Shown here: one piece after another, positions 2,577 through 10,026 of the stretch
Position numbering within the stretch: position 1 is the first letter of the stretch
How the letters are laid out: each line of letters starts with the position of its first letter
Virus record (IMG/VR): IMGVR_UViG_3300020413_000063
Coordinates: 1-26,567 of that record
Source of the DNA: a virus
Taxonomy: Duplodnaviria > Caudoviricetes
Reading direction: 5' to 3' (one strand)
DNA: 26,567 nt
Made by a program: the position numbers and the translations under genes
Notes under the pieces: generated by a model
The model's database searches: none
Seen by the model: only the letters and a program-made list of their open reading frames with translations
Told to the model about the DNA's origin: nothing

Positions 2577-2991
2577 TGTCTAGTGGCTTTGCGTTTCTAA
2601 GAGCATCAATATGCAAGTCACCAACATTAATTTGAACAGTCGCTTGTTTTTGTCCAAACATTTCGGGGTTATCACAACCAGCTAGCCATTTTCTAAGATT
2701 AGCTTGCTCTCTTGCTTTAGCAATCGCATTGGGGCTTTCCTCAACATTATCAATTATTTCTAAAGCTTGCTCAGCAAATGCCTCACCTCTCTCTTTTCTC
2801 GCACCTTGCAATAACTGTTTTTGCTTTGGGTCTTTATATAAATTGCTCACTAATAATTTGCGACTAACCCCAAATGACCTAGCTATCGCTGTCATGCTTT
2901 CACCAGAACAAACTCTATCCAAAATATTTTGGAAACCACCACTCTTTTCAATGTCAGCTAACATTTGTCTTTTTATTGGTTGACCTGCCAT
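2548..2991 (-). CDS. terS: Terminase small subunit (Sf6-like)
   Basis: N-terminal HTH (GESMTAIARSFGVSRK), helical ARKERGEAFAEQALEIID, RKWLA...PEMFG motif; upstream of terL. Confidence 0.85.
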   Translation of the reverse strand: MAGQPIKRQMLADIEKSGGFQNILDRVCSGESMTAIARSFGVSRKLLVSNLYKDPKQKQLLQGARKERGEAFAEQALEIIDNVEESPNAIAKAREQANLRKWLAGCDNPEMFGQKQATVQINVGDLHIDALRNAKPLDNDKLTKIPD

Positions 2992-3159
2992 TTCATAAAT
3001 ATAATTTGAAAAAATTTTTTTTTCATGTTAATTATCTACACAACCCCCTCTTGTATGGGTGTATTTCTCGACCTACATCAACATCAATAACAGTGGGTAT
3101 AGGGGGGGTTATTTTGAGAAAGTGTCCGAAAACTGGTTATATAACACCCTCTCACCACC

Positions 3160-3172
3160 TAAGTCATTGATT
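3160..3172 (-). promoter_or_regulatory. IHF-binding consensus site
   Basis: Minus strand AATCAATGACTTA is an exact match to WATCAANNNNTTR, in non-coding DNA with an AT-rich flank. Confidence 0.55.
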
Positions 3173-3186
3173 TCATTATATATTGT

Positions 3187-3214
3187 TTGGCGCATAATCT
3201 ACATTATGTTACTT
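3187..3214 (+). other. dif: dif-like XerC/XerD recombination site
   Basis: TTGGCGCATAA-TCTACA-TTATGTTACTT; 21/28 identical to E. coli dif (GGTGCGCATAA-TGTATA-TTATGTTAAAT), with the 11-6-11 layout and both inner 8-bp arms exact; intergenic. Confidence 0.8.
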
Positions 3215-4712: not shown

Positions 4713-4889
4713 CTATTGTTCATCTCTAGTAGTTGTACCATTGCTAACCCCCATTGTTTTTGTGTTATGAACCTCAATATTGTCCACTCCAAATTGTATT
4801 TCTAATCGAAAACAATCCTCACATAACGCAATGTCATCATTAATAATAAAGACTATTGCATCTCTTTTACATTTAGCACACAAGCTCAT
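4713..4889 (-). CDS. Small CxxC...CxxC zinc-binding protein
   Basis: MSLCAKCKRDAIVFIINDDIALCEDCF...; ATG 4889 overlaps the upstream stop (ATGA). Confidence 0.6.
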   Translation of the reverse strand: MSLCAKCKRDAIVFIINDDIALCEDCFRLEIQFGVDNIEVHNTKTMGVSNGTTTRDEQ

Positions 4890-5716
4890 ATCAATTTTCC
4901 TTGTTGAGATGATTTGTAAGCTTTTGACCAAGATGTTTTGGTCTTGCCATAGTTTCTAAAACCACCCTTAACTCTCTCTCCATCCTCATCATAAAGAACT
5001 TGGAAGAACTCAGGGAAATGCACATGAATAACATGGTGATCCCATGCAACTTTATCAGGGGTAGTTTCATCCCATAAAGTTGATTGACTTCCAAGGCTCA
5101 TGTTTTCAAAGCAATATTCTTGACTAACCCTATTCCCATAACCCTTCGATAATAGGCTCAAGAAAAATAAGGTATCTTCACCAAATCTAACTTTAACTAA
5201 TGGTAATTCTTTTAAAATATCTTTGAAATCTTTTCCATTAAACCATACAGCACTACCTAATGATGTATTGTTTCTATAATAAACAACATCTGGAATATTC
5301 TCAGAATGAGAACATCCACAAAATGTAACATTAGGCTCTTCTAACCATTGAGAGTATAATCGAAACATATCCAAAAGATCATGGTGAGAACAAATCCTTC
5401 TTGATTTCTCCATGTTATCTTCACCACCAAATCTTTTGGCATTTCTTCTATAAAACTTTATGTCATCATCAAGAACTGCATATTTCATATTGCAACCCTC
5501 TTGATAAATAATCTTTCTAGTTTTGGCTAAACATAAGTAATCATCTAAATTCACTTTGTCTGGCAACACTAAATAATCACAATCATAATGATATTTGGGT
5601 CTTTCCCATTTTTGAACAACCATAGTCACCTTTTCTTGTAGTTCTTTGGGTAAACTCTCATAAGTAATTTGATTATCTACTCTATTAACAGTTGGGATGA
5701 ATATTCTTTCTATCAT
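4886..5716 (-). CDS. TAGT/GREB1-like GT-A glycosyltransferase (copy 2)
   Basis: IFIPTVNR, LAKTRKII, VLDDD (DxD), GEDTLFFLSLLSKG motifs. Confidence 0.75.
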   Translation of the reverse strand: MIERIFIPTVNRVDNQITYESLPKELQEKVTMVVQKWERPKYHYDCDYLVLPDKVNLDDYLCLAKTRKIIYQEGCNMKYAVLDDDIKFYRRNAKRFGGEDNMEKSRRICSHHDLLDMFRLYSQWLEEPNVTFCGCSHSENIPDVVYYRNNTSLGSAVWFNGKDFKDILKELPLVKVRFGEDTLFFLSLLSKGYGNRVSQEYCFENMSLGSQSTLWDETTPDKVAWDHHVIHVHFPEFFQVLYDEDGERVKGGFRNYGKTKTSWSKAYKSSQQGKLI

Positions 5717-6597
5717 GCGACTTTCTCCATTGTGTTGATATTGACCAACACCATCCCATAATTATCTACACCACTTGGAATATTTAGCCCCTCTCTCATA
5801 ATGGGTTTGTTCTTCCTAAATGGTGTGTAATCTACATGATGGTGCCAGCGATTAAATTTCCAAGTGACAGACGCAACATCAGGGTGCATCTCTTCCAACA
5901 TCTTTGACTTATTCATAGTGCCTTCATGGGCATAGAATTCTTCCGTATTGCCCCCACCTAATCGCTGTGTTGTGGCTTTTTCTTGTAAGAATGCATTGAA
6001 TTGAAGAGTGCATAGCCCATCTTTAAGAACTCTTAGAGATAGGTCGGTATCTTCATTATATCTACCTCTCCACCTATACTCACATGAGTTATCAATCAGC
6101 AAACATGAGTAAATTCTAGTATTGAGCAAAAATGGTGGGTAAACCTCACTTGCAAAGCAAAATTTGCAATAATTCAAGCCACTAATAGGAATGTTTGTAT
6201 ATCTATCTACAAAATCCTCACTTGCTTTAAACAATGCGCCACTATTACAAATATTCTTGGCATTCCTATTAAAACGATAGAAATTATAAATGTTATCATC
6301 CATCACCCAATGCTTTTTAGCACCTATGGAAATAGAATGATCCCATGCAAAATTCCTAGCACCCCCTGGGCCTTTTGACTTACTATCCCCAAGATCATCA
6401 AAAGTGTCATAATTCTTGAGATAGTTTGGGTCTAAGATTAAAACCTTATCTTTTCCTACCTCATTGACGTAATTTTCGTACTCTAATTCCTCAACTACTA
6501 TCCAATAAGGCACTTGCATTCGATCTAAAGACTTTGACGTTAGACGGGATTCCCAGCGACCCTTAGACACAATGTAGATGGGATAGGTAGGTATCAT
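5713..6597 (-). CDS. TAGT/GREB1-like GT-A glycosyltransferase (copy 1)
   Basis: PIYIVSKGR, GGARNFAWD, WVMDDN, NTRIYSCLL, RYNEDTDLSL, GGGNT motifs. Confidence 0.85.
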   Translation of the reverse strand: MIPTYPIYIVSKGRWESRLTSKSLDRMQVPYWIVVEELEYENYVNEVGKDKVLILDPNYLKNYDTFDDLGDSKSKGPGGARNFAWDHSISIGAKKHWVMDDNIYNFYRFNRNAKNICNSGALFKASEDFVDRYTNIPISGLNYCKFCFASEVYPPFLLNTRIYSCLLIDNSCEYRWRGRYNEDTDLSLRVLKDGLCTLQFNAFLQEKATTQRLGGGNTEEFYAHEGTMNKSKMLEEMHPDVASVTWKFNRWHHHVDYTPFRKNKPIMREGLNIPSGVDNYGMVLVNINTMEKVA

Positions 6598-6863: not shown

Positions 6864-7071
6864 TGACCTCACCCATTCTAGTTCCAAACTTTTTGCCCGG
6901 GATATGAACTAGCATTTTCTTTTGAACTAGCTCACTCCTAATCGCTCTAATTGTGGGTACTGCTAACCCCACCATATCTTTCATCTCTGCTAAAGATGGT
7001 GGGTAGTCATTTTTTTCTATGTATCTTTTGTATGCGTAAAAGACGATTTTTTCATTTGGTGAGCTAAACAT
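6856..7071 (-). CDS. Stand-alone LexA-type winged-HTH DNA-binding protein
   Basis: YIEKNDYPPSLAEM...L..K.ML...PGK resembles the LexA N-terminal domain; no peptidase domain; TAATG coupling at 7069-7073. Confidence 0.75.
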   Translation of the reverse strand: MFSSPNEKIVFYAYKRYIEKNDYPPSLAEMKDMVGLAVPTIRAIRSELVQKKMLVHIPGKKFGTRMGEVNA

Positions 7072-8078
7072 TAATATCTCCAATCTGACTTAATTGTAGG
7101 TTTCTTGGCTCTCTCTGACCTAGCAGGCTTTGCTGGTACATTTTTTTGTGGTTGAGCTTTGTAATTTCTTGTCTTTCTCTCCAAAGTAAAAATTTCTTCC
7201 CCTAAACTATCCTCATTATAAAGAACCCCCTTCTCATGCATTCCCATAACATCCATAAGTTGAGCCTCTAAAGTTTCTCTTAATTTTTCACATGATTTGA
7301 TGGTTTTGACACACTCATATAAATCCAATGCGACTTGCTTATGGGTTTGAGTAAAATCTACAATTGGTAGATCACTCTCACTTTTTGGATAAGCTTCAGC
7401 ACTATCTTGAGTATCCATTGAGGGATAATAGTCTGGACCCTTTTTACGATTATAAAAGTCTTGTATTCTCTCAATGATTTCATTTTGCATTTCTTTATCT
7501 GGCTCATAGATAAATAGACGCAAAGATGAACCCCTATATAAGACACTAACCATGACATATCTTGCTTTATTACCATGCGCCTCATAGCAAAGATGACCAC
7601 CTTGAATTTGCAAAACACCTCTTTCAAGTGGTGGCTCATCTTCAATAGAGTGTTGTGTTGATTTAGCCTCTGTTAGAATTACATCACCTTTATCAAGCTC
7701 TATAAATTCCTTTCCCTTGAGCTTACCCATAAAACGAATATTCTCTGTTTCATGTATTTTTTGATTAGTATTTGATGTAAGAATTCCATCTAAACTCACC
7801 TCAAAAAAATCTTCTTTAAATCTAAAGACTTCGGTGATGTTTGAATTGACACTACAATTAAGATGTTCACCACTCACATTTAAAATATTAGTTTCATGAA
7901 TGTTTCCCCATTGTGTGTACTCATTCCCATTAAAGGGGGCTAATGGAAGATAATCAGGGTGATTATTTGCTAAATGTGATCTTAATAAACCATTTCTTTT
8001 GAGCCACCTATTTAGACCCCAAAGAGTAGGCAATACTGATCCTGTGATGAGATCATCACGAGTAAGTTTTCCAACCAT
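7071..8078 (-). CDS. YqaJ-like (lambda Exo family) exonuclease
   Basis: ITGS, WGNIHE, SLDG, EAKST and QIQG motifs of the PD-(D/E)XK viral exonuclease; GGAG RBS. Confidence 0.85.
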   Translation of the reverse strand: MVGKLTRDDLITGSVLPTLWGLNRWLKRNGLLRSHLANNHPDYLPLAPFNGNEYTQWGNIHETNILNVSGEHLNCSVNSNITEVFRFKEDFFEVSLDGILTSNTNQKIHETENIRFMGKLKGKEFIELDKGDVILTEAKSTQHSIEDEPPLERGVLQIQGGHLCYEAHGNKARYVMVSVLYRGSSLRLFIYEPDKEMQNEIIERIQDFYNRKKGPDYYPSMDTQDSAEAYPKSESDLPIVDFTQTHKQVALDLYECVKTIKSCEKLRETLEAQLMDVMGMHEKGVLYNEDSLGEEIFTLERKTRNYKAQPQKNVPAKPARSERAKKPTIKSDWRY

Positions 8079-8090
8079 TTTTTTCTCCGT

Positions 8091-8342
8091 TTATTGTGAC
8101 AAATAAACAATAAAAGAGAGAGCTATAATTAGGATTGTTAAGACTGCTTCTATACAAGTCTGACCAAACGAGATTAGGTCAGGTGAGTTAGCTTTGACAG
8201 ATTTAATAAATCTATATGTTCTACTAATAATTTCAGTTAAGATAATATATATTATGCGCCCAAAATGATAAAACACATTTGATATACCTATATTATTGCC
8301 TCTTTTAATGCCTTTTCTCATATTTTCCTCAATTTTTACCAC
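8091..8342 (-). CDS. Hypothetical membrane protein
   Basis: Hydrophobic C-terminal segment AVLTILIIALSFIVYL; start uncertain. Confidence 0.5.
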   Translation of the reverse strand: MVKIEENMRKGIKRGNNIGISNVFYHFGRIIYIILTEIISRTYRFIKSVKANSPDLISFGQTCIEAVLTILIIALSFIVYLSQ

Positions 8343-8360: not shown

Positions 8361-8762
8361 CTAATCTTGGTTACTACCACTAGATGTAGTGTTTCTAGTT
8401 TTCTTGGAAGTAACATTATAAACTCTTACTTCCTTTTCTTTTTCAAGTTTAAGATCATGATTAACTTTAGTTATAATACTTCTAAAACTCATGACTTTAA
8501 CATTATAAGGAATATTTGCGCCTTTTATGTCTTTTAGGTCTTTAACTAGTTTCTCTAAATGTTTGACTGCTATAGCTAAATGATTAGTGGTCATTGATGG
8601 AATATCTAATCTTGTACTCTCATTATCCCCTAACAATTTTTCTCTATATCTATTCATATAAAAACTATTTTTTCTAGCTTGTGGAGTAGATCGGTCTGCA
8701 TAATGGCTTTCTCTAGCCAAATAATCTTCCTTGTCACTACTCTTTCTAAAATTCATTAACAA
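8361..8762 (-). CDS. Hypothetical protein
   Basis: 133-aa ORF, TTG start preceded by AAGGAG. Confidence 0.7.
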   Translation of the reverse strand: MLMNFRKSSDKEDYLARESHYADRSTPQARKNSFYMNRYREKLLGDNESTRLDIPSMTTNHLAIAVKHLEKLVKDLKDIKGANIPYNVKVMSFRSIITKVNHDLKLEKEKEVRVYNVTSKKTRNTTSSGSNQD

Positions 8763-8828: not shown

Positions 8829-9308
8829 TTAAGATATGAACTTGAGTTTATCGCGTGAACTCACATATTCTGTATAATAATATTCTGTGCTTTTAAGCAT
8901 GATATCATCTGATTTGTAACACATGATTTTTGCAGAGATATGACTTTCAATGGCGATAAACCACCCCTCTTCTACACAATGATTAAATACTTTAGATACA
9001 AAAGCTTTTTTCAACTGTGGAAAATAATCTCTGACTTCTTTTTGGGTAATACATTTATCTTGTAATGTTTTAAGCACAACGAAAGCACCAATAATTCTTT
9101 TATTCATGTGACTTCTAAAATAATGGGTAGCTCTACGCATTTGCGGATCATGGGGTATGGGATAGTTTTGGTAATTAAAAAACGATAGTTCGGTTGCCAA
9201 ACTGTTTATGATACCCTCTTTAATATTGTATGGTGGTGGTGTAGCTTGAATTTTTTTTGCTTTCATATCCATGATCTTTCCACTTCTTTGATGTTCATTT
9301 AAATTCAT
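8829..9308 (-). CDS. Hypothetical protein, possible winged helix
   Basis: ITQKEVRDYFPQLKKAFVSKVFNHCVEEGWF is wHTH-like; GGAGA RBS. Confidence 0.55.
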   Translation of the reverse strand: MNLNEHQRSGKIMDMKAKKIQATPPPYNIKEGIINSLATELSFFNYQNYPIPHDPQMRRATHYFRSHMNKRIIGAFVVLKTLQDKCITQKEVRDYFPQLKKAFVSKVFNHCVEEGWFIAIESHISAKIMCYKSDDIMLKSTEYYYTEYVSSRDKLKFIS

Positions 9309-10026
9309 CTTTTTCTCCTAGATTTTGGTTAATAATTCTTCTTAATACTTGAGGAAACCATCTTGTCTTTCCCTTAAAGGTAAGAATTCCCCTCATTTCT
9401 AATTCTTGGCATATCCCAAATTCAGTAACATTTGGAAATTCCAATTTAATTTTCTCAATAATTGGCCAGACTTCTTTACGAAACTCCGCCCAACGTCTTA
9501 CATTAGCCTCATGAGCCTTAGTTAATTTTTTGGTACGTTTTGTATTACCAATCTTCACCCCCTTTTCTACGGCTCTCTTTTGACCTCTCTTGATGCGATT
9601 TGATTGCTCTAATAACTTTTGCTCTGCAATCATTCTCATGCCCCTAAGAAAAGTTTGATTTGTGGCTGGACTAAAATTGGGTTTTAAATCAACACCAATA
9701 ATTTTAACCTGACTTTCTAACATCATGGTAATGGCTTTAAAATTACCACTCACAATTACAAAGTCATTCATGATCAAATCAGCAAAATTTGATTTAGCTA
9801 TGGAAAGAGCCTCTTTTAACCCATCCCAAGTTCTACGATTTGTTTCGGTTACTTCCTCAATGATTGACCAATCACCACCATTGAGATGAAAAAGAATACT
9901 ATCTTTAGCTCGTTCATCATCCTTCAAAAGATAAACGACTTTTCTTCCATAATGCTTAACCACCGTTTTCTCCCTAGAAAATGTTAGCTGAAAATAAGGA
10001 GATTTCAAGTCTTTCATATTATACAT
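9295..10026 (-). CDS. Serine recombinase/resolvase homologue, predicted catalytically inactive
   Basis: Retains WSIIEEVTE, LKEAL..AK...ADLI, IAEQ...SNRIKRGQKRAVEKGVKIG (helix E) and the C-terminal RGILTFKGKTRW...LRRII domain; the YxRVS and KLDRLxR motifs are absent. Confidence 0.75.
   Translation of the reverse strand: MYNMKDLKSPYFQLTFSREKTVVKHYGRKVVYLLKDDERAKDSILFHLNGGDWSIIEEVTETNRRTWDGLKEALSIAKSNFADLIMNDFVIVSGNFKAITMMLESQVKIIGVDLKPNFSPATNQTFLRGMRMIAEQKLLEQSNRIKRGQKRAVEKGVKIGNTKRTKKLTKAHEANVRRWAEFRKEVWPIIEKIKLEFPNVTEFGICQELEMRGILTFKGKTRWFPQVLRRIINQNLGEKDEFK

Follow-up and report, generated by a model that had tools for sequence, protein, structure and literature searches.

A serine recombinase orthologue without its catalytic residues, and an alternation of tyrosine integrase and dif-like site, in a marine podovirus family

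The open reading frame at 9295-10026 of the window (the whole stretch of 26,567 nucleotides analyzed) is, by alignment and gene order, syntenic and orthologous to the active small serine recombinases of a marine podovirus family. The frame is intact, the catalytic residues are lost, and the gene is under purifying selection, as in a serine pseudo-recombinase. In the same family, a dif-like site takes the place of a tyrosine integrase encoded two genes downstream of the recombinase. We tentatively favor the reading that the window protein is a DNA-binding dimer, regulating phage transcription and maintained by purifying selection, after an integrase-to-dif swap in which the phage likely uses host XerCD.

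The window is a linear virus record (26.6 kb, 70% complete by CheckV) encoding a terminase, a YqaJ exonuclease, a primase-helicase, a Holliday-junction resolvase, and two TET-associated glycosyltransferases. It lacks portal, capsid, and lysis genes, which are supplied by an overlapping 34.6-kb contig (L054, L056, and L057) with >99% identity to the window around the recombinase gene. The full phage is roughly 38 kb and tailed, with portal and capsid of SU10 type. The runs holding at least half of the stretch (8 among 24 listed) are marine metagenomes, and no RNA run is among the listed holders. The two genome matches, MAGs containing the gene, were inspected for integration at host dif and rejected as host evidence because their contigs are phage-only and their phylum-level labels conflict. 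One such contig (L056 1-64, compared with window 2983-3073) opens with window 3010-3073 reversed and attached to the start of terS. This is probably a fold-back of the assembly; no such joint was seen in 4 runs.

9295..10026, minus strand: catalytically dead small serine recombinase with resolvase fold, long helix E, and C-terminal helix-turn-helix (ORF, alignment, AF2 model, dN/dS)
9970..9975, minus strand: ribosome-binding-like AGGGAG, 6 nt before GTG 9963 (sequence; same layout in close copies and L254)

The ORF has 243 codons, with YLLKD at residues 32-36 and NDFVIVSG at residues 87-94. Translation probably starts at GTG 9963, giving 222 aa, with ATG 10026 (243 aa) as the alternative. The GTG position is common to P0003, the P0006 clade, and most live orthologues. 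The 21 codons upstream of GTG 9963 are also conserved, frame and ATG being kept in 7/7 close copies, so that ATG 10026 is a less likely but possible start. The promoter-like TTGAAA-16-TAACAT preceding GTG 9963 is no more frequent than chance predicts (18 found, 21 expected). In the alignment with 21 live relatives, the window protein has Y-L-D-D where the live enzymes have Y-R-S-T, and V/I/G in their D/R/R columns. All of Arg8, Ser10, Asp67, Arg68, and Arg71 (gamma-delta resolvase numbering) are replaced. The YxRxS nucleophile motif (Arg8 and Ser10) reads Y-L-L-K-D, and the DRLxR motif (Asp67, Arg68, and Arg71) reads V-I-V-S-G. The loop after the nucleophile is about 10 residues shorter than in live relatives, the ESG motif is missing, and the Arg119 equivalent in helix E is retained as R123 of the 222-aa form. 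The original prediction of a 243-codon ORF with these two altered motifs and a shortened loop is therefore confirmed by alignment, with the start probably corrected. The protein has no Pfam Resolvase (PF00239) match, and its PHROG 'DNA invertase' match is weak (E 9e-5, residues 99-180). Viral clusters with and without PF00239 appear in the ESM Atlas at 0.91-0.95, which we treat as a lead only. With 222-243 aa instead of >400, and no PF07508 or zinc-ribbon match, it is not a large serine integrase.

Homology to the live recombinases is secure because 30 of the 31 viral loci found with profile A2, built from 8 close copies of the window protein, are live serine recombinases (24-32% identity) that have in common with it the gene slot and an N-terminal HxGK followed by an HLNGGDW signature. 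Protein searches by indexed words retrieved no more than 2 and 3 relatives. A PDB sequence search gave CAP as its sole match, which we dismissed as chance. The AF2 model has a pLDDT of 85, and about 90 in the three-helix C-domain. All 5 Foldseek matches with E<=0.001 are serine recombinases, the top one being Sin resolvase in a regulatory complex, and structure comparison to 3guv gave a VIA Z of 9.9 (rmsd 2.8, 127 aligned). The model has the resolvase alpha/beta fold and the long helix E, as had been proposed, and the match leans on live enzymes because these make up 21/24 rows of the AF2 input alignment. The preserved helix E and C-terminal region were also borne out: the helix-E arginine is kept, and the predicted three-helix DNA-binding domain is conserved and basic. 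Homologues of the recombinase are carried by large coliphages. The cultured OM43 phage MEP301 has a live copy adjoining yqaJ and has no annotated integrase and no dif-like site; its authors doubted recombinase function on domain grounds (PMC8024684).

Selection has kept the protein intact. Among 7 close copies, dN/dS is 0.016-0.115 in all 21 pairs (dS 0.10-0.95). For the dead domain alone it is 0.012-0.084 (21 pairs), the lowest domain value in the close clade (about 0.05). The 8 complete close copies have no stop or frameshift, and dN/dS is about 0.07. A pseudogene was already ruled out by dN/dS across the close copies. No serine is conserved in the N-domain of the dead proteins aligned, and therefore no alternative nucleophile is present there. 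On both counts the prediction of a protein that is catalytically dead and not decaying holds.

A homologue search over 1.84 billion representatives gave 139 matches. Both catalytic motifs are found, by a strict pattern, in 85/143 stored homologues, many of the others being fragments or variants, and at least 13 full-length homologues besides P0003 lack the catalytic serine in the alignment. Ten dead proteins form one clade (SH-aLRT 98, from a quick tree with long branches), and a long stem branch leads to the window clade. The catalytic columns are replaced in 10/10 members and none keeps the serine, with the exceptions that one member keeps the Arg8 column and some have Arg at the 68 column. 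Serines conserved in at least 8/10 members occur only in helix E and the recognition helix. The residues invariant in 10/10 (F161, L188, E189, T195, G198, and W202) are clustered in the helix-turn-helix, as expected of a shaped binding surface. Mean identity in the N-domain is 0.24 among dead and 0.48 among live proteins; in the C-domain it is 0.32 in both. Net charge is +6.9 in dead versus +2.8 in live proteins for helix E, and +8.9 versus +4.8 for the C-domain, and the charge of the emptied catalytic domain has shifted to neutral or acidic. Dead proteins and their live orthologues are only about 21-24% identical in each domain, and Tyr11 is conserved in both.

The tree requires 3 changes for the catalytic losses. 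It does not establish independent losses, since one common origin for the 10 dead rows put to the AU test was not rejected (p 0.21). A recombinase without the serine and DR was also observed at L231 1027-1776, in a phage that retains a tyrosine integrase. It looks like a separate, recent loss of catalysis, the sole argument being its contrast in sequence identity: 58-61% to live enzymes of integrase phages and 23-33% to other dead ones.

The gene lies in a recombination module with the following features.

8829..9308, minus strand: winged-helix-like protein whose gene overlaps the stop of the recombinase; most of the family has it, L255 does not (alignment; L012 homologue)
8361..8762, minus strand: helical-hairpin protein in the integrase slot, accompanying the dif-like site; candidate Xer accessory factor (alignment, slot survey)
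8235..8262, minus strand: dif-like site 1, with XerC arm, TATATA spacer, and partly degenerate XerD arm, in the slot of the attachment-like motif of integrase phages (arm-wise scan)
8091..8342, minus strand: small hydrophobic ORF overlapping dif-like site 1 (ORF list)
7071..8078, minus strand: YqaJ/RecE-like exonuclease, constant downstream module border (domain matches)
4886..6597, minus strand: two TET-associated glycosyltransferase genes (PF20691) in tandem (Pfam)
3187..3214, plus strand: dif-like site 2, with TCTACA spacer and near-canonical XerD arm, between a small ORF and terS (arm-wise scan)

The gene order of the family is primase-ssb-resolvase (divergent), and further on recombinase - winged helix - X - yqaJ. 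In type 1, slot X holds a tyrosine integrase (PF00589), in some phages with a small Xis/AlpA-like gene, followed by a common short motif. In type 2, it holds an 80-140-aa helical protein homologous to that at 8361-8762, followed by CGCATAA-(T/C)RTATA-TT. We found an integrase in 39 loci, a dif-like site in 37, and both in 0, the loci being redundant; among clusters at 90% identity, 16 have an integrase, 14 a dif-like site, and none both. The best 80 of 362 integrase scan matches gave 36 family loci, none with the dif-like motif. Searches with four family integrases (tblastn) found no integrase in the window, L054, L056, or L057, and Pfam found none on the main ORFs of the window and the added contig, so the element has no integrase of its own by these searches. 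The motif after the integrases may be a tRNA 3' end; as a tRNA piece it was recognized by neither ARAGORN nor Rfam.

By these comparisons of gene content, the tyrosine integrase two genes downstream of the recombinase is what the dif-like site replaces. A switch from phage-encoded to host-encoded recombination had been proposed from the window itself. The switch is seen in the family, but the enzyme replaced is the tyrosine integrase and not the serine recombinase: phages that carry both a live recombinase and an integrase show that the recombinase did not serve as integrase. The best-fitting sequence of events is that dif first replaced the integrase and some dif lineages later lost catalysis.

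Several neighboring genes vary among the relatives. The L012 homologue of the winged-helix protein matches MarR_2 (E 6e-6, 26.8 bits), just below the cut-off of 27. The winged-helix gene is 58% identical to L001 4308-4784 and 31-35% to L006 3152-3799, whereas its neighbors are 83-97% identical. Such fast divergence is frequent in immunity-type repressors. At L255 9992-11079, a dead recombinase is directly followed by a gene like that at 8361-8762, and the winged-helix gene is absent. In the P0006 clade, yqaJ is split in two frames with a break near codon 100 (L254 8493-9564 and L256 6501-7572). In the close relative L001 (7016-7759), a different, methyltransferase-looking ORF immediately follows the common upstream gene. 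Reads show strain variation around window 5960-6580, within the glycosyltransferase region, and window 4886-6597 is possibly variable DNA-modification cargo.

The arm-wise scan gave 2 dif matches in the window versus 0 in 100 shuffles; a scan with the whole 28-bp dif consensus, allowing as many as 3 mismatches, gave no match there. The XerC arm and TATATA spacer of site 1 occur once each in 15/401 bacterial genomes (control 0), and the 14 occurrences read out are all full dif-like sites with the same XerC arm and spacer. Site 1 is thus a dif-like attachment site with a host-type XerC arm and spacer, as in IMEX. The scan of viral contigs for the motif covered 8 of 64 parts and gave 124 loci, 80 of them with flanks, by which 16 family loci were added. 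In 26 related records chosen by protein, CGCATAA-N6-TT occurs once in each of 7, all with a type-2 slot (reverse control: 4 hits). Around site 1 we compared 22 loci, 13 found through the motif itself and 9 through protein. The motif lies in two different frames of the overlapping ORF across these relatives, and therefore the constraint acts on DNA. In the 22 loci, dead or live, conservation within 50 bp of the site is limited to CGCATAA-N6-TT. The contigs of 4 runs, which show presence only, have no joint at either dif-like site and, among the loose ends listed, none at these sites. Host XerCD likely uses the phage dif-like site, and this tailed-phage family appears to exploit XerCD.

Site 2 is inverted relative to site 1 in the window and direct in L254-L256. 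Its counterparts lie at L254 11474, L255 14261, and L256 9482, and compared with L254 and L255 the window has the 28 bp in reverse orientation. Between the two sites lie 3-5 kb that contain yqaJ, a LexA-like gene, and cargo that varies, a layout reminiscent of dif-flanked modules. The motif TAAGTCATTGATTT is present at window 3161-3174, 26 bp from site 2, and also at about 6390 of L028, adjoining the attachment-like motif of an integrase phage. L135 has, apart from the usual site at 2926, a further dif-like motif (1041-1068) right before the start of its live recombinase.

The gene that tracks the dif-like site is, by gene content, that at 8361-8762 and not the dead recombinase allele. All 36 loci with its homologue carry a dif-like site and none an integrase (redundant loci; the profile was built from family members), so that it is tied to the site as an XafT-family gene would be. 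The family always precedes the site and has an invariant Arg, a near-invariant Pro, and two long helices. DUF3653, the domain of the XafT family, was matched neither by this protein nor by 4 homologues, and a fold search with its model gave no match with E<=0.001. Complex prediction of its core with a bacterial XerD catalytic domain scored 0.00, which weighs neither way. We regard the protein as a candidate Xer accessory factor.

The dead allele is tied to the dif site only loosely, as judged from the loci compared. In the 30 clusters with a visible slot, those with integrase comprise 15 live and 1 dead recombinase and those with dif 8 live and 6 dead (90% identity; L213 moved to live by eye, partial genes dropped). 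The enrichment of dead alleles, 6/14 versus 1/16, has a Fisher p of 0.03, for clusters that are non-independent and unevenly ascertained; they were found by different routes, and those through the HLNGGDW motif favor live alleles. Behind it stand two dead lineages with dif and one with an integrase, and in the dif-only sample p is 0.10-0.24 at lineage level. A dif site is likewise present in the P0006 clade (3/3 loci), which was retrieved through its protein rather than the motif. The yqaJ alignment was too diverse for a family scan, and P0007 has no viral locus. The proposed co-occurrence of dead alleles and dif sites was accordingly found as an enrichment, but 8/14 dif clusters are live and L231 is dead with an integrase. 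Phages with a live enzyme and a dif site exist, and therefore the site does not need the dead enzyme.

Our favored reading, the DNA-binding regulator, would have arisen as follows. From the comparisons above, the ancestor was a live small serine recombinase heading the order recombinase - winged helix - X - yqaJ, with X either a tyrosine integrase (with or without the Xis/AlpA-like gene) and its attachment-like motif or the 8361-8762 family with a dif-like site. The live enzyme may have carried out resolution or inversion of circular phage DNA and may, like Tn3-family resolvases, have doubled as a DNA-binding repressor. Once a dif site was present, strand exchange could pass to host XerCD. In a deep clade of dif phages, the protein lost its catalytic residues in a burst and was then conserved again, with a more basic helix-turn-helix that matches that of live enzymes in conservation. 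It would have kept the ability to bind a site with its helix E and helix-turn-helix, and the simplest use of this would be as a repressor in the lysis-lysogeny region. The dimer, the target, the repression, and the use of XerCD are the conjectural parts of this explanation. Across 30 loci, live and dead, no inverted repeat is conserved in the 200 bp upstream of the gene, either as a binding site or as a cognate res/inv-like crossover site. This lack of an operator-like repeat counts against a regulator. So do the live MEP301 copy with neither integrase nor dif and the coliphage homologues, which make the live enzyme's job uncertain; the greater basic charge, which equally fits non-specific binding; and the long branches and quick-tree SH-aLRT of the dead clade. 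For the wider scenario, a swappable lysogeny cassette in a widespread family of tailed marine podoviruses in which the integrase was swapped for a dif-like site plus an XerCD activator unrelated to XafT (8361-8762), freeing the serine recombinase to become a DNA-binding pseudo-enzyme, we find the case possible and rather doubtful.

An architectural accessory for XerCD that binds DNA flanking the dif-like site(s) and sets topology or direction is unlikely. Non-catalytic resolvase subunits and PepA/ArgR have architectural roles of this kind. Every dead-clade locus with a visible slot carries a dif-like site, the window and P0006 clades have a second site near terS, and the top Foldseek match is a resolvase in a regulatory complex. 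However, the original suggestion of an architectural or directionality factor for dif found no footing around the site, where no motif specific to dead alleles flanks the conserved core in the 22 loci, and 8/14 dif clusters keep a live enzyme while the 8361-8762 gene tracks the site. Non-specific coating or protection of DNA, as a packaging aid, nuclease shield, or means of host shut-off, seems rather improbable. It agrees with the more basic helix E and C-domain and with the missing operator-like repeat, but the clade-invariant residues cluster in the helix-turn-helix and the gene stays within the recombination module.

We have little faith in a dominant-negative inhibitor that forms mixed dimers with, or occupies sites against, live recombinases of co-infecting relatives or satellites. 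Related phages commonly carry live orthologues and the dimerization helix is retained in the model, but the 21-24% identity to those orthologues is poor for heterodimers or common sites, and selection in the close clade is purifying, not diversifying. Just as improbable is a protein-protein adaptor, in which the emptied catalytic domain binds the winged-helix protein or a host factor; within the close clade, dN/dS is lowest in that domain, which is neutral to acidic, and the recombinase stop overlaps the winged-helix gene, but across the wider dead clade no part is less conserved than the N-domain (0.24), and L255 has no winged-helix gene. A cryptic enzyme with another nucleophile, or a pseudogene in early decay, is hardly credible, as the helix-E arginine and Tyr11 are kept but the loop and five catalytic positions have been lost, live enzymes conserve Tyr11 as well, and the 8 complete close copies are free of stops and frameshifts at a dN/dS of about 0.07.

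The combinations live + integrase, live + dif, dead + dif, and dead + integrase form a natural series, which would capture a recombinase turning into a DNA-binding protein; the only precedent we found for such a conversion is poxvirus F16. Temperate marine phages with a dif-like site in place of an integrase would be called lytic by integrase-based screens, and if tailed phages make this replacement, lysogeny in the ocean virome is undercounted. If the proposed role is true, the 8361-8762 family is a second class of phage-encoded Xer factor. The literature searched, with most subscription journals and supplements outside it, gave nothing on dead serine recombinases in bacteriophages, and under the same limits nothing on dif-using marine tailed phages or an integrase/dif swap. 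Already known are an inactivated viral serine recombinase, in poxviruses, and XerCD-exploiting elements; the phage pseudo-recombinase clade and the integrase/dif swap were not found described.

Like the large serine integrases (phiC31, Bxb1, and SPbeta), the window protein has the catalytic fold and then the start of a recombinase-like domain, but it has 222 aa, no zinc-ribbon or coiled-coil domain, and no catalytic serine. With the small serine recombinases (PF00239; MEP301 gp04 and the L012 and L016 proteins) it has in common the fold, length, helix E, C-terminal domain, and slot beside yqaJ; without Ser10, Arg8, Asp67, Arg68, and Arg71, with a short loop and no PF00239 match, it is not an active member. 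IMEX such as TLC-phi with XafT exploit XerCD (PMC6744903, PMC9226527). XafT-driven integration of TLC-phi tolerates a degenerate XerD arm that keeps the innermost T (PMC9226527), and lysogenic phages at dif are mentioned for Xanthomonadales (PMC6744903). TLC-phi and IMEX of its kind are like the present phage in having no integrase, an intact XerC arm and spacer, a degenerate XerD arm with the innermost T, and a small gene beside the site. They differ in that here the element is a tailed phage of about 38 kb whose small gene lacks DUF3653 and whose integration is putative. The closest parallel for the protein itself is poxvirus F16/OPG61, described as an inactivated serine recombinase of unknown function (bioRxiv 10.1101/2022.11.22.517515). 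Both proteins are viral, have DRLxR replaced, and have an active form surviving in a deeper branch, but the window protein is of separate origin, belongs to a bacterial virus, keeps its C-terminal DNA-binding domain, and sits in a recombination module.
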